Notes: a model not told the origin generated them from the sequence alone. Counted from the stretch's first letter, positions 1-44,056 are shown. The stretch is 44,056 nt of DNA from Faecalibacterium sp. CAG:74 (GCA_963588415.1 CAVAHB010000127.1:1-44056), one strand, 5' to 3'. Translations and numbers: made by a program.

Positions 1-139
1 GTTCCAAATCACACCCAATGTGACCATCTGACAAAAGAACGCCACGCGAATAAAGATTAAAAACACAAGCCGCCACCTGAAACAAGGCGAAGAGCGCGAG
101 TGCCGCGATGATGAGGTATTTGGCTTTACTTGCCTTCAT
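1..139 (-). CDS. hypothetical membrane-anchored protein, N-terminal fragment that runs off the window start
   Basis: ATG at 139 overlaps the end of the upstream oxidoreductase gene by 14 nt. Hand translation gives [46 protein letters not shown], with one hydrophobic helix. It is absent from the ORF track because the window edge truncates it. Confidence 0.35.
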
Positions 140-1673
140 GATACTCCTCCTCGGTGTTGACGTTCCAGACGGCGGACTTGTCGGCGGTGCCCGAGACGAG
201 GGCGCGGGCGGCTTCGATCCCGCAGAGCATGGAGTGGTCCATGTTGTTGTAGCGGTGCTGTCCGTTGCGCCCAATGCAGTAAAGATTGGTAAGACTATCG
301 AGATAAGTGCGCACCTCGCCAAACGCGGCATATGTGCCGAAGTAGGCGGGATACGCCTTCCTCACCCGAAGCCGCACGGAATCGAGGACGGGCGTGTCCG
401 CCGCGAGGACCCCTATCTTCCGAAGCTCGCCGACGGCGAAGTCCGTGAACGCCTTGTCGTCCATCTCCCACATCGCGTCGCCCTCCGCGCAGAAGTACTC
501 GAGTCCGATCCAGACGTGCCGCGTCGGGTCGTCGACCATGTAGGGACTCCAGTTGTTGAAGATCTGGATGCGCCCCATGCGCACGTCCCGCTCCTGCACG
601 TAGATCCAGGTGTCGGGGACGAGCCCGTTGAGCGTGAGGAACTTGGTCTGATTCTTTATGGCGAGGCGCCCGACCTTGAGCCCGACCGTCATGAAGTCGC
701 GGTAGGGCAGCCCCTCCGCCACGCGGCGGACATCTTCTGGTACATCGGGTAGCGCGGCAATTAGATCCTTTACAGGCATGGACGAGAACGCCGCGTCGCA
801 GGGGATGACGTCGCCGCCCGCCGTCCGGACGCCGCGCACCCTGCCGCCGTCCAGTTCGAGCCCGACGGCCTTCGTCTCCATGCGGATCTCCACGCCCTTC
901 GCCCTGAGGTCGTCCGCGAGCGCCTCCCAGAGCTGCCCCGGCCCCTTCTTCGGATACATGAACTCCTCGATGAGCGAGGTCTCCTTCTTCCCGCCCTTCG
1001 GGAGAAAGACGTTGAGGAGCGCCTTCCAGAGCGAGAGACCCTTCACGCGCTGCGCACCCCACTCCGGCGAAATCTTCGACGGGTGCACGCCCCAGAGCTT
1101 CTCGGTGTAGTCCTCGAAGAACATCTCGTAGAGGACGCGCCCGAAGCGGTTTATGTAGAAATCTTCGAGGGATTTTTCGGGTCGCTTGACGAGCACACTC
1201 CTGAGATAACTCCAGCCGGCCTTCCACGTCCGTGCGAGCCCCATTGCGGCGAATGTCGAGAGTTTGATGGAAATCGGGTAGTCGAAGAAGTGGCGCAGGT
1301 AGTAGATGCGGCTCACGCGATGACGGCGGAGCATGACGCGGTCCCCCCTCTCCGGGTCGGGTCCGCCCGACTCGACGTTGCAGGCGCGGTTCAGCAACAG
1401 GTCATCCCGCGCGGGTGCGCCCTGAACGGGCATGAGGCGCGTCCAGAGGTCGTTCACCTCTTTTGACTTCGAGAAGAAGCGGTGTCCGCCGATGTCGATG
1501 CGGCAGTTGCCGTGGACGGCGGTTCGTGAAATGCCACCAATGTAAGGCGACTCCTCAAGTATCGTAATCTTCCAACTGGAGTCCAGCCTGAGCAGTTCGT
1601 GCGCGGCGGTCAGTCCCGCGGGACCCGCGCCGATGACGACGGCACGCTTGGAGGTGGTTTCTGTTGTTTTCAT
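126..1673 (-). CDS. FAD/NAD(P)-binding oxidoreductase (amine oxidase / UDP-galactopyranose mutase-like fold)
   Basis: ORF 126..1775, trimmed to the ATG at 1673 ([28 protein letters not shown], a GxGxxG dinucleotide-binding motif at the N-terminus). The C-terminal [18 protein letters not shown] is typical of this flavoenzyme family. The gene sits 14 nt downstream of the gtrA-like gene. Confidence 0.8.
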
Positions 1674-1687
1674 GATGTTTTCCGTTT

Positions 1688-2032
1688 TCACCTGAAGATG
1701 ATGAGCTTGCGACCAAGGTAGTTCCAGAGGAGCACGACGGCGGTCACGAAGACCTTCACAAGGCGGTAGTCCCACTCAAGGACGGCGACCCCGAGCCATA
1801 TCCCGAGTTCCGTCCAGAGGAGTCCGAGAAGGCCGATGACGCCGAAGACGAGGAACGCCCCGACGGAGCGTCCCCTGCGGCGGTCCTCCGCCCGCGTGAA
1901 GACGAAGAGGAGGGAAAGGGCGTAGTTGACGGCAAGCCCCGCAAGGAAGCCGCAGACGGTGGAGAGATAGACGCCCGCGGCAAGGCGGCCGAAGAGGAAC
2001 TCCTGCGCGGCGACAAGCGTCCCGAAGTCCAC
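1688..2032 (-). CDS. GtrA-family membrane protein; annotated from a GTG start, but the N-terminus appears disrupted
   Basis: Small polytopic membrane protein. The same frame stays open upstream to 2131 and encodes ...[29 protein letters not shown], a typical GtrA first helix, yet has no ATG/GTG/TTG there. A C10 tract at 2119-2128 separates it by one frame from an ATG-initiated leader ORF (2240..2103). Confidence 0.7.
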
Positions 2033-2118
2033 GAGGAAGGCGACTCCGCCGACAACGGCGTAGCGCAGGAACTCGCCGAGAAGCGCCGCGAAAACGGCGG
2101 CTCTACCGCACCCTACCT

Positions 2119-2128
2119 GGGGGGGGGG
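2119..2128. repeat. G10 (C10 on the coding strand) homopolymer at the 5' end of the gtrA-like gene
   Basis: Counted directly: G at 2119-2128. Removing one base joins the leader ORF MRETGMAERRVLRTAGVSVGEISARNSTCASSFIEINTPPP to the gtrA frame. Confidence 0.95.
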
Positions 2129-2264
2129 TATTTATTTCAATAAAAGAGGAAGCGCAAGTGCTATTTCTGGCACTTATCTCGCCGACGGACACCCCTGCCG
2201 TGCGCAGCACTCTGCGCTCAGCCATCCCCGTCTCACGCATCTCCGACCTCAATCATTCGCACAT

Positions 2265-2273
2265 AGTATACCA
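2265..2273 (-). promoter_or_regulatory. extended -10 promoter element TGGTATACT for the gtrA-oxidoreductase operon
   Basis: Minus strand reads ATGGTATACT. The ATG at 2240 lies about 25 nt downstream and is preceded by GAGG. The same TGGTAWAMT motif recurs upstream of at least 8 other genes in the window. Confidence 0.5.
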
Positions 2274-2391
2274 TATTTCGTGAAATCGTGCTTTTGCCAC
2301 CCGAAGCGACCCCATCGGAGGTCTCGATGCGCATCGGAGCAACTTTTGGTGCGCACCAGAGCCTCGGACGGTGCGCAAGGAATGCCGCCGC

Positions 2392-4059
2392 TCAGTATGA
2401 CCGACCGTCGCGGCGGCTGAGATAATTGTCGATGGCGTGTTGAAGGACGCGCTCGCCGCCGGGTGTCGGGTAGTCGCCCGTGAAGTACCAGTCGCCCGTC
2501 GTCGCCGGGCATGCCGCACGGAGCGACTCCATCGTCTGGAAGATCACGTCCACCCGCGCATTCATTTCGGGCGGCGTCAGCAACTCGGCAATGGCCTTCG
2601 ACAGGACGGGGAGCGGAATCGCCGCGTAGGCGGCGCGGAGTTCGCCCGGCGTGCGCGGCACTTCGTCGCCGCGCAACTTCAACAGCGCCTTGAAGGCGAC
2701 GAGTTCGCCCAGCGACGACATGTCGATTCCGTAGCAGTCCGGATAGGCGATTGGCGGGGCGGACGAGACGACGACGATGCGCTTCGGCCCGAGCCGGTCG
2801 AGCATCGGAAGAATGGCGTTTCGCATCGTATTGCCGCGCACAATCGAGTCGTCCAAGACGACCAGCGTATCCACGCCCGGCGTGACGAGCCCGTAGGTGA
2901 CGTCGTAGACGTGCTTGTAGAACTCGCGTCGGGCGGCGGCGTCCGCAATGAAGGTGCGGAACTTCGCGTCCTTCACGGCAATCTGCCCGAAGCGGACGGG
3001 CCGCCCCTCTGCGAGGCCTTCAGTCCAGAGGGCCTCCATCAGTCCGTGGAAGGCGACCTGCGCGGAATTGGGGATGTAGCTGAAGAAGGTGTGGGCGAAG
3101 TCGTAGCCGACGGTTTCGAGGATCGGCTTGGCAAGCGCCGCGCCGAGGGCCTTGCGCTCGCGGTGGATGTCCGCGTCGTTTGCACGGGAGAAGTAGATGC
3201 GCTCGAAGACGCAGCTGCGCTTTTCCGCCGCGTCCATGATCTTCACGAACCGCACGTCACCCGAGGGCGAGACGATCATCGCCTCGCCCGGCACGAGTTC
3301 GCGCACGGCCTCGGTGCCGCAGTTGAACGCCGCCTGAATGGCGGGCCGCTCCGACGCCGCAACGGCGACCTCGTCATCGACGTAGCAGTAGCCGGGGCGG
3401 ATTCCGTGCGCGTCCCGAATCGCGAAGCTCCACCCGTCCGCCGTCATTCCGCAGAGCGTGAACGCGCCGTCCAGACGCGGCAAAAGGGACTGAAGAGCCT
3501 GAATGAGGACGTTTCCGCGATCCTCCTCGCCCTGCATTTCCGCGTGGAGCATGCACGAGGCGAGCCATTCGCAGATCAGGTAGCCGTCGGCCTGCGATTC
3601 GGGGAACTTGCCGATGTCGATGTAGGCCTGGAACATCTCGTGGGTGTTCGTCAGGTTGAAGTTCCCGGCGAGGAAGAGCGTGCGGCGCAGGCGCGGAGAC
3701 TTGTGGACGAACGGATGGCAGAAACCGACGTCGCCCTTCCCGTAGGTCGCATAGCGCAGATGGCCGAGGAACAGCGTCTCGCCGATGAGCCGCCGCTTCG
3801 CAATCTGCGAGAGCAGGTCGGCGAGCGGGTTCTCGACGGCAGACTTCAGGATATGATACGCGCTCGACCCCGGTTCGGGATCGAGCGTGAGGGTTGCCGC
3901 ACCGGCGCCGTCCTGCCCGCGATTGTGCTGCTTTTCGAGCAGGAGCGAGAGTTTCGTGCCGCCGAAGTCCGCCGCGCCGTACTTCTCGCGGTAAAAGGCG
4001 GCGCCCTTGCGCAACCGCAAGAGCGTCACCGCACATTCGTGCTTGATTTGGTCCGACAT
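2392..4059 (-). CDS. purF: amidophosphoribosyltransferase
   Basis: ORF 2392..4233, trimmed to the ATG at 4059 (MSDQIKHEC..., a short propeptide before the catalytic N-terminal Cys). Has the class II glutamine amidotransferase fold and the PRPP motif VVLDDSIVRGNT. Confidence 0.9.
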   Translation of the reverse strand: MSDQIKHECAVTLLRLRKGAAFYREKYGAADFGGTKLSLLLEKQHNRGQDGAGAATLTLDPEPGSSAYHILKSAVENPLADLLSQIAKRRLIGETLFLGHLRYATYGKGDVGFCHPFVHKSPRLRRTLFLAGNFNLTNTHEMFQAYIDIGKFPESQADGYLICEWLASCMLHAEMQGEEDRGNVLIQALQSLLPRLDGAFTLCGMTADGWSFAIRDAHGIRPGYCYVDDEVAVAASERPAIQAAFNCGTEAVRELVPGEAMIVSPSGDVRFVKIMDAAEKRSCVFERIYFSRANDADIHRERKALGAALAKPILETVGYDFAHTFFSYIPNSAQVAFHGLMEALWTEGLAEGRPVRFGQIAVKDAKFRTFIADAAARREFYKHVYDVTYGLVTPGVDTLVVLDDSIVRGNTMRNAILPMLDRLGPKRIVVVSSAPPIAYPDCYGIDMSSLGELVAFKALLKLRGDEVPRTPGELRAAYAAIPLPVLSKAIAELLTPPEMNARVDVIFQTMESLRAACPATTGDWYFTGDYPTPGGERVLQHAIDNYLSRRDGRSY

Positions 4060-4076
4060 TCGGAACTCCAATGCGA

Positions 4077-6248
<2,172 letters not shown>

Positions 6249-6305
6249 CTTCGTTTTCCTTTCGCTTCGCCGCCCGAACCACCCGAACGGCTTACATAAA
6301 AGGAA

Positions 6306-6323
6306 TAGCACAGACCGTGCCAA
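6306..6323 (-). promoter_or_regulatory. sigma-54 (-24/-12) promoter candidate for the GS-III gene
   Basis: Minus strand reads TTGGCACGGTCTGTGCTA, against the consensus TGGCACG-N4-TTGCW. The GG-N10-GC spacing is correct. It lies about 58 nt upstream of the ATG at 6248. Confidence 0.6.
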
Positions 6324-6630
6324 CTGCCCTTCTGCGGCGGCGGACTGCCGCTCGGTCGGCACAGGCAGACCAAAAATGTAAATCCGCCGCGACCCCTATT
6401 ACACGCCCCGCACAGACTTTGTAAAACTCCATTCGGACGTGACGGCCGCGGTCGGGGAGGTTCTTCTTCCCATTCAGTTTCAGAATCGCGCCCGACTTTC
6501 CGCGTCAGTTCCACCAAATCTGTCCTCACTTGTCCTCAAACGACTTCCGACGGTGTGAATAATGCCAAATCCGCCCCCGTCTGTCAACGGGGACGGGGAA
6601 AAAATCTTCCCCTTCCGAAGCGCGACGGAC

Positions 6631-6759
6631 TGCACCCGGGTGCAGACACCTTCTGGACCCGGGTGTAGACACCCTCTGCACCCGGGTGTAGACACCCTCT
6701 GCACCCGGGTGTAGACACCCTCTGCACCCGGGTCCAGACACTCTCTGCACCCGGGTGCA
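6631..6759. repeat. six tandem 23-bp repeats, each carrying a 14-bp dyad TGCACCCGGGTGCA or a near variant
   Basis: CCCGGG cores at 6635, 6658, 6681, 6704, 6727 and 6750, an exact 23-bp period. The unit is TGCACCCGGGTGYAGACACCCTC. The first and last copies are perfect 14-bp palindromes. Confidence 0.95.
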
Positions 6760-6918
6760 GTTCGTAGAGAAAATCAACTGCCGAGTTTAGGTTGACAGGA
6801 GGGGTTGTGGCGCGGTGCGGCATCCTAGTACTAAGGAGTACGGGAAGGCCCCATTTGCCTCCGTGGCCAGAATCGGGTCTCGGTAAAAACGGACAAACTC
6901 CAGCCAGCACGATTGCCC

Positions 6919-6948
6919 TTGACCGAAAGCGGCGAATTATGGTAAAAT
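6919..6948 (+). promoter_or_regulatory. sigma-70 type promoter for the aldolase gene
   Basis: TTGACC (6919-6924), an 18-nt spacer ending in TGG, then TAAAAT (6943-6948). It lies about 110 nt upstream of the ATG at 7061. Confidence 0.55.
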
Positions 6949-7060
6949 ACGCGCACTTTTCGGGCTAATGGTCTGTTCATCCGCCGCGCGAAGGTGCGTC
7001 GGGGGGTGGCGGATCGGAAGTCCAACAGGTACATCCAAGCAAAAAATGGAGTAAACAGCA

Positions 7061-8065
7061 ATGAAGAAGACCAGTTACAAGGATCTCGGCCTCGTCAACA
7101 CCAAGAAGATGTTCGCCAAGGCCGTCAAGGGCGGATACGCGATTCCGGCGTTCAACTTCAACACGATGGAGCAAATGCAGGCCATTGTCCAGGCCGCCGT
7201 CGAGACCAAGTCCCCGGTCATCATGCAGGTTTCCAAGGGTGCGCGCAAGTATGCGAACCCGACGATTCTCCGCTACATGGCGCAGGGCGCGGTTGAATAT
7301 GCCAAGGAACTCGGCTGCAAGAAGCCCCAGATCGTCCTCCACCTCGACCACGGCGACAGCTTCGAAACCTGCAAGAGCTGCATCGACAGCGGCTTCTCGT
7401 CCGTCATGATCGACGGTTCGTCGCTTCCGTTCGAGGAGAACATCAAGCTGACGAAGAAGGTCGTCGCCTACGCGCACAAGTATGACGTGACGGTCGAGGC
7501 GGAACTCGGCGTTCTCGCGGGCGTCGAGGACGAGGTCGCGGCGGAAGAGTCGCACTACACGAAGCCCGAGGAAGTGATTGAGTTCGCGACGAAGACGGGC
7601 TGCGATTCGCTCGCGATTTCGATCGGCACCTCGCACGGCGCATACAAGTTCAAGCCCGAGCAGTGCACGCGCGACCCGAAGACGGGCAAGCTGATTCCGC
7701 CGCCGCTCGCGTTCGACGTGCTGAAGGCCGTCGAGAAGAAACTTCCGGGCTTCCCGATCGTCCTGCACGGTTCGTCCAGCGTCCCGCAGGAATACGTCGA
7801 CATCATCAACAAGTTCGGCGGCAAGCTTCCCGACGCGGTCGGCATCCCCGAGGAGCAGCTCCGCAAGGCGGCGAAGAGCGCGGTGTGCAAGATCAACATC
7901 GACAGCGACTCGCGCCTCGCGATGACGGCGGCGATCCGCCAGCACTTCGCGGAACACCCCGACCACTTCGACCCGCGTCAGTACCTCACGCCGGCGCGCG
8001 AGGAAATGAAGAAACTTTACATCCACAAGATTGTGAAGGTTCTCGGTTCGAACAACAAACTCTAA
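7061..8065 (+). CDS. fba: fructose-1,6-bisphosphate aldolase, class II
   Basis: 334 aa. GGAG lies 8 nt upstream of the ATG. Class II aldolase motifs LHLDHG and SIGTSHGAYK are present. Confidence 0.9.
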   Translation: MKKTSYKDLGLVNTKKMFAKAVKGGYAIPAFNFNTMEQMQAIVQAAVETKSPVIMQVSKGARKYANPTILRYMAQGAVEYAKELGCKKPQIVLHLDHGDSFETCKSCIDSGFSSVMIDGSSLPFEENIKLTKKVVAYAHKYDVTVEAELGVLAGVEDEVAAEESHYTKPEEVIEFATKTGCDSLAISIGTSHGAYKFKPEQCTRDPKTGKLIPPPLAFDVLKAVEKKLPGFPIVLHGSSSVPQEYVDIINKFGGKLPDAVGIPEEQLRKAAKSAVCKINIDSDSRLAMTAAIRQHFAEHPDHFDPRQYLTPAREEMKKLYIHKIVKVLGSNNKL

Positions 8066-28005: not shown

Positions 28006-28164
28006 AATCTGAGGCAACCTGACATTAGCCTGAAGTTTACTCGTTTTTCACTGGGGGCCCGATTCTGACCACGGAGGCAATTGCAAGACTTCCTGCGGGC
28101 GGGCGCGACACCCGCCCCGACCGTGCGAATACGGTAGGGTCACGCATCCCGCGTGACCGCCGCA

Positions 28165-28200
28165 CTTTCGGCGCGAAGACCCCTTCCTGTCCGACCGCCG
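28165..28200 (+). repeat. conserved 36-bp junction motif, copy 1 (CTTTCGGCGCGAAGACCCCTTCCTGTCCGACCGCCG)
   Basis: Near-identical copies lie at 28732-28767 and 43943-43982. Copies 1 and 3 are each followed within 3 bp by the palindrome array. Confidence 0.9.
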
Positions 28201-28202
28201 AG

Positions 28203-28415
28203 CCCATATATGGACAACCCCCGAGTCCATATATGGAGAAACCGAAATCCATATATGGACAACCCCCGAGTCCATATATGGAGAAATCAAAATCCATATA
28301 TGGAGAAACCGCTGGCCATATATGGAGAACGAGTTGTCCATATATGGATTTGCGTTTGTCCATATATGGAGAACGGTTTGTCCATATATGGACAGCACCC
28401 GAGTCCATATATGGA
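28203..28415. repeat. array of ten 12-bp palindromes (TCCATATATGGA) at 22-23 bp phasing
   Basis: CCATATATGG occurs at 28204, 28227, 28249, 28272, 28294, 28316, 28338, 28360, 28382 and 28405. Spacers fall into two classes, CAACCCCCGAG-like (11 nt) and GAAAYC...-like (10 nt). This gives a partial 45-bp higher-order unit. Confidence 0.97.
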
Positions 28416-28540: not shown

Positions 28541-28665
28541 ACCACTGAACACACTGAACGGCCTTCGGCCGACACAGAATACACTGAACTTGCCATCGGG
28601 GGGAGGCCGAGCCGACTTTCAGTGTGTTCAGTGTGCCGCGAAGCGGCTTCTGTGTGTTCAGTGGT
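28541..28665. repeat. 125-bp nested-hairpin element, copy 1
   Basis: A perfect 13-bp outer stem, ACCACTGAACACA (28541-28553) paired with TGTGTTCAGTGGT (28653-28665). Inner mini-hairpins are GGCCTTCGGCC (28560-28570) and GCCGCGAAGCGGC (28635-28647). The arms are built from ACACTGAAC sub-repeats. About 111 of 125 positions match 43660-43784 with no gaps. Confidence 0.9.
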
Positions 28666-28691
28666 CGAAACCGCCGGGCGGGGCGAGTTTT

Positions 28692-28714: not shown

Positions 28715-28731
28715 GACGAAAGTCGCCCTCT

Positions 28732-28767
28732 CTTTCGGCGCGGCGAACCCTTCCTGTCCGACCGACG
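28732..28767 (+). repeat. conserved 36-bp junction motif, copy 2 (not followed by an array)
   Basis: CTTTCGGCGCGGCGAACCCTTCCTGTCCGACCGACG. Confidence 0.9.
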
Positions 28768-28771
28768 CGCC

Positions 28772-28789
28772 CAATCCTGTCAATCCTGT
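28772..28789 (+). repeat. tandem 9-mer CAATCCTGT x2
   Basis: A direct repeat immediately after junction motif copy 2. A third exact copy lies at 27885-27893, in the leader of the sigma-fusion gene. Confidence 0.8.
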
Positions 28790-38495: not shown

Positions 38496-38569
38496 TGGAG
38501 GTGGGAAGCGGAGTTGAACCGCTGTAAGCGGATTTGCAGTCCGCGACCTAACCGCTCGGCCATCCCACC
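38496..38569 (-). tRNA. tRNA-Cys (GCA)
   Basis: Hand-folded cloverleaf. The acceptor stem is GGTGGGA/TCCCACC, the anticodon arm is GCGGA-CTGCAAA-TCCGC, and the T arm is AGCGG-TTCAACT-CCGCT. CCA is encoded. Length is 74 nt. Confidence 0.9.
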
Positions 38570-43659: not shown

Positions 43660-43784
43660 GCCACAGAACACACTGAACGGCCTTCGGCCGACACAGAACA
43701 CACTGAATCTGCCTCCGAAGGGAGGTGAAGCCGACTTTCAGTGTCTTCAGTGTGCCGCGAAGCGGCTTCTGTGTGTTTAGTGGT
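43660..43784. repeat. 125-bp nested-hairpin element, copy 2
   Basis: Aligns without gaps to 28541-28665, with about 14 mismatches, 9 of them in the central segment. The central loop forms CCTCC-GAAG-GGAGG. Both mini-hairpins are conserved exactly. Confidence 0.9.
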
Positions 43785-43942
43785 AGAAACCCCGCCCCGC
43801 CCCCTCTACCTTTCTACAACTCAACACGGCCAACAAGCGCCGCGCCCAACCCCTGCGAACTCCGCGGCTCTGCGCGAGTTCCACGGCCAGCACCACAGTA
43901 CAGAGTAGCACACGAGTTCCCCTCCAGTTCAAAAAAAGTTGC

Positions 43943-43982
43943 CTTTCTGTCGGCGCGGCGAACCCTTCCTGTCCGACCGCCG
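43943..43982 (+). repeat. conserved junction motif, copy 3
   Basis: CTTTCTGTCGGCGCGGCGAACCCTTCCTGTCCGACCGCCG, followed 2 bp later by the second array. Confidence 0.9.
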
Positions 43983-43984
43983 TA

Positions 43985-44056
43985 CCACCCTATGGAGAAA
44001 TCGAAATCACTAGATGGAGAATGCGTACTCAATATATGGAGAAAGTCAAATCAATA
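43985..44056. repeat. second, degenerate 22-bp-period array, truncated by the window end
   Basis: ATGGAGA occurs at 43992, 44014 and 44036, an exact 22-bp period. The units CCACCCTATGGAGAAATCGAAA, TCACTAGATGGAGAATGCGTAC and TCAATATATGGAGAAAGTCAAA resemble the TCCATATATGGAGAAACCGAAA units of array 1. A fourth unit starts at 44051. Confidence 0.85.

Follow-up and report, generated by a model that had tools for sequence, protein, structure and literature searches.

What controls transcription of the type III glutamine synthetase (GS-III) gene in the 44,056-nt stretch CAVAHB010000127.1 (assembly GCA_963588415.1, listed as Faecalibacterium sp. CAG:74; hereafter the window, at its full length), and does the tandem array of 23-bp repeats farther upstream take part? 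The original prediction joined a sigma-54 promoter in front of GS-III to this array, which was read as an enhancer platform for an NtrC-like protein. The model that we favor, probable as a whole though some way from secure, keeps the sigma-54 promoter, places the enhancer in a different pair of dyads close to it, and regards the array as lineage-specific repeat DNA. The features on which the argument turns are the following.

4077–6248, minus strand: GS-III gene, encoding 723 aa, with its ATG at 6248.
6307–6322, minus strand: sigma-54 −24/−12 element TGGCACGGTCTGTGCT, the sole exact match in the window, with a predicted start near 6296.
6366–6382, minus strand: promoter-proximal enhancer-like dyad TTTACAtttttGGTCTG, centered near −78, of which only the TTTACA half fits the consensus.
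6398–6424, minus strand: distal enhancer-like dyad region, consisting of a TGTAA half-site (plus-strand TTACA at 6399–6403) and an overlapping TTACAaagtcTGTGC (6410–6424), with centers from about −110 to −121.
6630–6760: tandem array, 5.7 copies of a 23-bp unit with 92% match (score 213, Tandem Repeats Finder).
6919–6948, plus strand: sigma-70-type fba promoter, TTGACC-18-TAAAAT with an upstream TG, from a pattern scan.
7061–8065, plus strand: fba gene for class II fructose-bisphosphate aldolase (Pfam F_bP_aldolase, 3.6e-99), with homologues of up to 99% identity.

GS-III and fba are divergent and are separated by an intergenic region of 812 bp. The GS-III protein has the Pfam domains GSIII_N (4.1e-73), Gln-synt_C and Gln-synt_C-ter. 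It is 98% identical to the protein of L001, a human-gut metagenomic bin (related loci are designated here by L numbers), 79–96% identical to proteins of bins labelled Kiritimatiellia, Kiritimatiellaeota or Verrucomicrobiota, and 64–70% identical to proteins of Victivallis/Lentisphaeria and Fibrobacter. The genes of the window, which is chromosomal and has 64% G+C, point to gut-associated Kiritimatiellia. Our comparison set comprised 80 loci encoding GS-III relatives, drawn from one-genome-per-species collections.

The promoter is the firmest part of the model. The minus strand carries TTGGCACGGTCTGTGCTA at 6306–6323, with the GG-N10-GC spacing first described for it, and the pattern TGGCAC-N5-KTGCW has one match on both strands of the 44 kb where 0.03 would be expected. 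Relative to the consensus TGGCAC-N5-TTGCW, TGGCACGGTCTGTGCT has a single departure, a G for T before the GC. About 30 of the 35 closest loci have a −24/−12 element 60–98 nt 5′ of the GS-III start codon, and a slightly relaxed pattern finds one in about 59 of 81 orthologous sequences from Kiritimatiellia and Lentisphaeria. The GG and GC blocks are fixed across these loci and the spacer between them varies in sequence, the pattern that a functional sigma-54 promoter should leave. Comparison with related loci thus lends strong support to the predicted sigma-54 promoter of GS-III as a real one, and on this point the original prediction holds, with a match that is unique in the window and conserved across both classes.

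The start near 6296 is placed by the usual spacing from the −12 element and gives a predicted 5′ untranslated region (UTR) of about 48 nt, which contains one further conserved feature.

6269–6291, minus strand: conserved stem-loop GCCGTTCGG-GTGG-TTCGGGCGGC, in the predicted GS-III 5′ UTR just 5′ of the ribosome-binding site.

RNAalifold predicts eight pairs for this stem-loop from 15 Kiritimatiellia sequences, five of the eight with compensatory changes, and there is modest support for its being conserved as a structure.

Where, then, would the activator of this promoter bind? When the Lentisphaeria and Victivallis sequences are anchored on the promoter, they present paired TTTACA-N5-TGTAAA dyads (N4 in Victivallis) with centers about 31–33 bp apart, 40–110 nt upstream of the −24 element. 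In Kiritimatiellia the layout is kept with degenerate outer half-sites, as TGTAA-N17/18-TTACA-N5-TGTNA. In alignments, the proximal dyad of the window corresponds to TTACA-N5-TGTNA in Kiritimatiellia loci, some 50 nt 5′ of the −24 element, and to a full TTTACA-N5-TGTAAA in Lentisphaeria, and the distal site also has a conserved equivalent in orthologous loci. Within 150 nt upstream of the promoter and with up to two mismatches allowed, TTACA-N5-TGTAA occurs at least once in 47 of the 59 promoter-bearing sequences and at least twice in 22 of them, compared with a background of 0.039 per 150 nt over 588 kb. The dyad centers are 30–33 bp apart in 22 loci and stand at about −78 and −110 in the window, where TGTAA-N17-TTACA (6377–6403) is unique against an expectation of 0.00. 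Judged by this conservation, the TTACA/TGTAA pair is most likely the GS-III enhancer.

The same pair appears to have a second client in relatives. In L015, L019, L020, L053, L055, L064, L066 and others, a second −24/−12 element lies beyond the dyad pair and faces in the opposite direction; in L019 it precedes gltB (2–2768, minus strand), whose product has the domains GATase_2 (2e-156), Glu_syn_central and Glu_synthase. The dyad pair of these relatives stands between the GS-III promoter and the divergent gltB promoter, an arrangement in which it would serve both glutamine synthetase and glutamate synthase (GOGAT).

A candidate for the activator comes from the relatives as well. As the original prediction stated, the window itself has neither a bacterial enhancer-binding protein (bEBP) nor rpoN among its 32 open reading frame (ORF) translations in a Pfam scan. 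A tblastn search with the E. coli NtrC central domain, whose matches we treated as leads only, located sigma-54 activator genes beside GS-III in L007 (Kiritimatiellia), in L045 and in Fibrobacter loci. The proteins of L007 (1284–2825) and L045 (186–1703, minus strand) have GAF, Sigma54_activat and HTH_8 domains and no receiver domain according to Pfam. In L007 a glutamate dehydrogenase gene precedes the activator gene, and the 175-bp spacer between the activator gene and GS-III contains TTTACAggcgaTGTAAA and TTGGCATGGTCCATGCC. The 120 best-scoring relatives of the activator are all at least 77% identical to it and come from many contigs, several of them labelled Kiritimatiellae; elsewhere the gene is not adjacent to GS-III. 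From this distribution we infer that a GAF-type activator is present in the genome of the window, where it would be the probable regulator of GS-III through the dyads.

Taken together, these elements suggest the following switch. GS-III would be transcribed from the promoter at 6307–6322, and a bEBP bound to the two TTTACA-N5-TGTAAA-family dyads (6366–6424), about three turns apart, would activate it; in relatives the same pair would also activate the divergent sigma-54 promoter of gltB. The bEBP would probably be the protein with GAF, sigma-54 AAA+ and Fis-type helix-turn-helix (HTH) domains, and sensing of nitrogen status by its GAF domain is possible. The array would lie outside this conserved switch.

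The closest well-studied parallel is glnAp2 of E. coli and other enterobacteria, where two strong NtrC sites, 17-bp dyads three turns apart, are found at −140 and −108. Both systems have a −24/−12 promoter before a glutamine synthetase gene and two 17-bp dyads of the 6-N5-6 form about 32 bp apart within about 120 bp upstream, and both belong to a nitrogen-assimilation regulon, in which the dyads are here common to gltB in relatives. They differ in the enzyme (GS-III versus type I, GS-I), in the dyad (TTTACA-N5-TGTAAA versus TGCACC-N5-GGTGCA), in the probable activator (GAF-type versus phosphoryl-receiver type) and in the 23-bp array, which has no counterpart at glnAp2. As far as sequence can tell, the GS-III system would work like glnAp2 but is not a member of the NtrC/NtrC-box family. 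There is also a likeness to NifA-type bEBPs, because the L007 and L045 proteins combine GAF, AAA+ and Fis-type HTH domains and some sources label orthologues 'Nif-specific regulatory protein'; the dyads share TGT and ACA cores with NifA sites. Unlike NifA, the activator would have GS-III and gltB rather than nif genes as its targets, and the predicted sites read ACA-N5-TGT where NifA sites read TGT-N10-ACA.

If the enhancer is the dyad pair, what is the array? It is 131 bp long and intergenic, lies 307–437 bp beyond the GS-III promoter and ends 159 bp before the fba promoter, close to the 310–450 bp and 160 bp first estimated. The six dyads of the original prediction are also present: the 14-mer TGCACCCGGGTGCA or a one- or two-base variant of it occurs six times, compared with 0.15 expected by chance, and the unit is found nowhere else in the window. 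The finer description has to be revised. The repeats had been called six exact copies, but identity is confined to units 3 and 4, and the sixth is a partial copy of 16 nt. The half-sites and the N2 spacer of the supposed compressed dyad are as described, but its extent is not, since the unit is really an 18-bp palindrome, TCTGCACCCGGGTGCAGA, with a 5-nt linker, CACCC. Nor do the sites share one face of the helix other than approximately: on B-DNA geometry, from which we derived the phase, 23 bp corresponds to 2.19 turns at 10.5 bp per turn, so that neighbors are about 70 degrees apart and six sites wind almost once round the helix.

The whole array is a quasi-palindrome that folds as one long interrupted hairpin. 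The plus strand has a predicted energy of −64.7 kcal/mol as DNA (z = −12.3) and −121.3 kcal/mol as RNA (z = −15.5), and the minus strand −112.9 kcal/mol as RNA (z = −11). Variants in unit 2 (CTGGAC, C-to-G) and unit 5 (GGTCCAG, G-to-C) pair with one another in this hairpin. We rejected a coding repeat, because a period of 23 is not divisible by three; a plasmid origin or centromere, because the array has housekeeping genes as neighbors and no rep or par gene nearby; and an array of the kind formed by clustered regularly interspaced short palindromic repeats (CRISPR), because there are no spacers. CCCGGG occurs four times outside the array where 11.4 would be expected; most palindromic hexamers are depleted, so this count is uninformative on a restriction-site cluster.

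Comparison with relatives separates the array from the promoter. The nearest relative, L001, has 92.6% nucleotide identity to the window over the gene, and the similarity breaks off near 6406, immediately beyond the distal dyad. The GS-III control region of L001 is 223 bp long and starts where a co-directional gene ends; a terminator-like hairpin comes first, then the dyads and the promoter, and no array is present. There is no tandem repeat upstream of GS-III in L002 or L003, and none of the 80 GS-III loci contains the 23-bp array. A search of 660 kb of related loci for the unit core CACCCGGGTG gave no match, and a scan of viral contigs for the repeat unit likewise gave none. Orthologous loci keep the promoter and lack the repeats, an outcome that the original prediction had itself named as refuting it, and the proposal that the array is an NtrC-like enhancer platform is not supported.

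On the other side, sequence is conserved in relatives from 6916 onward, including the fba promoter. The fba-purM pair is conserved, but what precedes fba changes from one examined relative to the next (secretin, purD, metallophosphatase, sulfatase and others), and no locus among the 80 has fba upstream of GS-III. Because similarity ends near 6406 and resumes at 6916, the interval 6406–6916 constitutes a synteny breakpoint, occupied by private sequence. Logan contigs from relatives extend over the coding edges alone and break at both sides of the region, and L201 and L202 share with the window only a 23-nt module that comes from another part of it. We therefore favor a model in which the array would be a genome-specific repeat of the 18-bp palindrome, able to form a long hairpin or cruciform, and one of several fast-evolving modules filling the breakpoint, which has the GS-III control region on one side and the fba promoter on the other. 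The array would most likely have arisen, and persist, by slippage or unequal exchange, with at most an incidental effect on the flanking promoters.

The array is not the only one of its kind. The window contains two others.

28204–28415: second array, ten CCATATATGG cores with a 22/23-bp period and variable linkers of 12–13 nt.
43992–44056: third array, with a 22-bp period, kin to the CCATATATGG array and truncated at the window end.

The first and last five units of the second array are in inverted register, giving a global palindrome (DNA fold, z = −12), and this array is located between the cluster of a 1144-aa gene resembling extracytoplasmic function (ECF) sigma factors (minus strand) and an acyltransferase gene (plus strand). 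The CCATATATGG-type unit is thus found at two loci of the window, both of them non-nitrogen. A 47-nt leader (CTTTCGGCGCGGCGAACCCTTCCTGTCCGACCGCCG...) occurs three times, at 28160–28206, 28727–28773 and 43942–43988, and two of the copies directly precede the 22-bp arrays; the third precedes a 9-bp repeat in two copies, CAATCCTGT, the reverse complement of which is also present upstream of fba in L201 and L202.

Among relatives, unrelated arrays of 22–29 bp, mostly with dyad cores, are found in L004 and L029 (two each), L006, L028, L031, L205 and L208. The period is 22 or 23 bp in 11 of the 17 non-coding arrays of the window and related loci. At different loci, L028 (2698–2833) and L031 (6783–6873) have a common unit family, CTTAAAG-stem-GTA-stem-GACTTAACCA, whose stem is kept by compensatory change (GCCAC-GTA-GTGGC versus GGCC-GTA-GGCC). 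In 317 kb of a common related species, we found dispersed elements roughly 120 bp long, in each of which the 12-bp GCGTCCCCGTGG is present three times (L222–L231, 14.8–20.4 kb); they vary in copy number between strains in the same intergenic regions and are often near PIN-domain genes. The variety of these arrays and elements indicates that such genomes carry fast-evolving, lineage-specific intergenic repeats.

Repeats of this kind have partial counterparts elsewhere. Like the repetitive extragenic palindromic (REP) sequences of Proteobacteria, with their bacterial interspersed mosaic elements (BIMEs) and hairpin-forming REP doublets (REPINs), they are extragenic imperfect palindromes that form tandem clusters and hairpins, evolve fast and are lineage-specific. 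They also form mosaics with short modules at synteny breakpoints, and some of the hairpins, as in L028 versus L031, are kept by compensatory change. Unlike REP and BIME, the units of 22–29 bp follow one another strictly head to tail, the sequence differs from array to array, and the data at hand contain the 23-bp unit only once. No REP-associated tyrosine transposase (RAYT, IS200/IS605-like) was seen among the scanned ORFs of the window, which were not searched specifically for RAYT. The direct tandem repetition with a period of about 22 bp is shared with plasmid iterons (the 22-bp iterons of R6K and pPS10), and a dyad in each unit is shared with the 43-bp units of F sopC, which contain an inverted repeat. 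Unlike iterons and centromeres, the array sits in a chromosomal housekeeping context (GS-III and fba), with no rep-like domain or par gene in the window and several different arrays within 44 kb.

Several observations weigh against the model. Distance alone is not decisive, because enhancers can act from more than 300 bp. Only the inner halves of the window dyads fit the consensus, and binding to them could be weak. The complementarity of the unit 2 and unit 5 variants hints at selection for the long hairpin, or at repair within it. An index of sequencing runs returned no run with more than 10% of the words of 5800–7300 and none holding 6400–6915. In addition, arrays are found upstream of the GS-III control region in four Kiritimatiellia loci (the window, L004, L028 and L029), and in L028 and L029 they directly adjoin the dyads; the GS-III intergenic region was the one sampled in every locus, so this count is no measure of enrichment. 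A recurrent, sequence-independent role of the arrays, for example in DNA structure or insulation, is accordingly conceivable, but we regard it as rather unlikely.

The alternative that best survives is that the array is a functional DNA element other than an enhancer, either a set of sites for a dimeric or nucleoid protein or a supercoil-driven cruciform that insulates or tunes GS-III and fba, with the 22–23-bp period under selection. The recurrence of this period in unrelated sequences would be accounted for, as would the dyads in most units, the great stability of the quasi-palindromes, the complementary variants of units 2 and 5, and the compensatory change in the L028/L031 stem. The genomic setting is also compatible, since the first and second arrays lie in long intergenic regions between divergent genes and the third, cut by the window end, is intergenic. 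No candidate binding protein is known, however, and units that differ between arrays and genomes could not all be read by one protein. The closest relatives have no arrays and give no sign of lost regulation, the related species with the 12-bp triplets has quite different repeats, and the census of arrays is small and partly non-independent. We consider a functional element of this type unlikely. More doubtful still is a broader form of it, in which the 22–23-bp palindromic arrays of gut Kiritimatiellia would together make up a functional class of DNA-structure elements with unlike sequences and one period, often located between divergent promoters and, in four lineages, just upstream of the GS-III sigma-54 control region. 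As supercoil-responsive cruciforms or as binding platforms they could insulate or modulate nearby promoters, and their units would turn over rapidly with period and dyad symmetry preserved.

We give very little credence to the proposal from which the analysis started, in which an NtrC-family hexamer assembles on the six phased TGCACCCGGGTGCA dyads and activates GS-III from about 330–460 bp upstream. Its appeal lies in half-sites equal to those of the enteric NtrC consensus, in dyads far above chance, in the real sigma-54 promoter downstream and in the general ability of enhancers to act at a distance. Against these stand the spacer, which is N2 rather than N5 and puts the half-site centers 8 bp apart instead of 11, and the 23-bp period, which does not place the sites on the same face. 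The array is missing from every orthologous locus that keeps the promoter, a different and conserved dyad pair holds the enhancer position, the activator of the lineage is of the GAF type and not the receiver type, and comparable arrays are found at non-nitrogen loci. Neither a TGCACC-N2-GGTGCA nor a TGCACC-N5-GGTGCA dyad is found near any GS-III gene in the related loci, and the N5 form has no occurrence in the window. The likeness of the array to NtrC half-sites is best explained as coincidence.

A transcribed array acting as a structured RNA, a long hairpin read more probably from the plus strand (towards fba), is likewise very improbable. The plus-strand fold is the more stable of the two, and the GTGTAG variants form G-U pairs on the plus strand where they would be A-C mismatches on the minus strand, but this asymmetry of 8 kcal/mol can be explained by one amplified C-to-T change. 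A pattern scan predicts no plus-strand promoter upstream, no relative has a homologue, and a permissive Rfam scan of 6150–7150 gave only spurious microRNA-hairpin matches to the array, all below threshold. Least probable of all is an artefact of metagenome assembly in the array or its copy number, since a 131-bp array is shorter than typical reads, its variants are ordered and symmetric and not collapsed identical copies, and similar arrays appear in many independent assemblies, even though the window is apparently metagenome-derived, its closest matches are metagenomic bins, and no independent sequence of the intergenic region was found, the Logan contigs breaking at both edges.

The rest of the intergenic region has further features in the manner of a mosaic.

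6559–6587, minus strand: putative sigma-70-like match facing GS-III, TTGACA-17-CATTAT with an upstream TG, from a pattern scan only.
6789–6803, minus strand: CCCCTCCTGTCAACC, a possible weak relative of the leader CCCTTCCTGTCCGACC (15 of 18 positions, one gap).
6832–6846, minus strand: module TTCCCGTACTCCTTA, with an exact match in the 28.0–28.5 kb intergenic region.
6852–6906, minus strand: module of about 55 nt (TTGCCTCCGTGGYCAGAATCGGG...AAAAACG..AAACT.CAG), with one mismatch relative to 28030–28085 on the opposite strand.

The sigma-70-like match sits in the non-conserved part of the intergenic region. Homology of 6789–6803 to the leader of the other two arrays is tentative, and a multiple alignment is not clearly in its favor; in a metagenome scan with the 16-nt leader CCCTTCCTGTCCGACC, the matches listed were unrelated, mostly coding and from soil and gut taxa, and included no extra arrays. 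Both copies of the module of about 55 nt directly adjoin the −35 of a sigma-70-type promoter, that of fba in one place and that of the ECF-like gene in the other; the module is a candidate upstream promoter element or binding site for an activator. An inverted repeat (I19) between the flank of the array and the 28-kb region is 92% complementary.

Some neighboring observations complete the picture of the window. Downstream of GS-III on the same strand are a gene with a glutamine-amidotransferase domain (2392–4080, minus strand) and an FAD/NAD-binding oxidoreductase gene (126–1775, minus strand), which may form a nitrogen-assimilation operon with GS-III. An exact look-up found no protein on record identical to the fba product of the window. 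In L203–L212 a tRNA gene, about 100 nt upstream of fba, separates fba from its sigma-70-type promoter; at that place L201, L202 and the window instead have roughly 100 nt of unrelated sequence. A 131-nt element occurs twice, at 28542–28672 and 43661–43791, with 89% identity, and forms a long imperfect hairpin with 56-nt arms. It looks like a miniature inverted-repeat transposable element or a structured RNA and has no Rfam match at the gathering threshold, at which the sole match in the window is a tRNA at 38499–38569.

Literature searches turned up nothing relevant. The striking NtrC-like repeat is a coincidence on the reading that we favor, and it illustrates why sites predicted from a single sequence should be checked against relatives before being trusted. 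These repeat-rich and fast-rearranging intergenic regions, with their recurrent 22–23-bp period, are a minor curiosity. What the locus contributes to the biology of these organisms is the predicted assignment of GS-III, and in relatives also GOGAT, of gut Kiritimatiellia and Lentisphaeria to a sigma-54 regulon. This regulon would have a defined enhancer motif, TTTACA-N5-TGTAAA in two copies, and a candidate GAF-type activator, which provides useful annotation for a common but poorly studied gut lineage.

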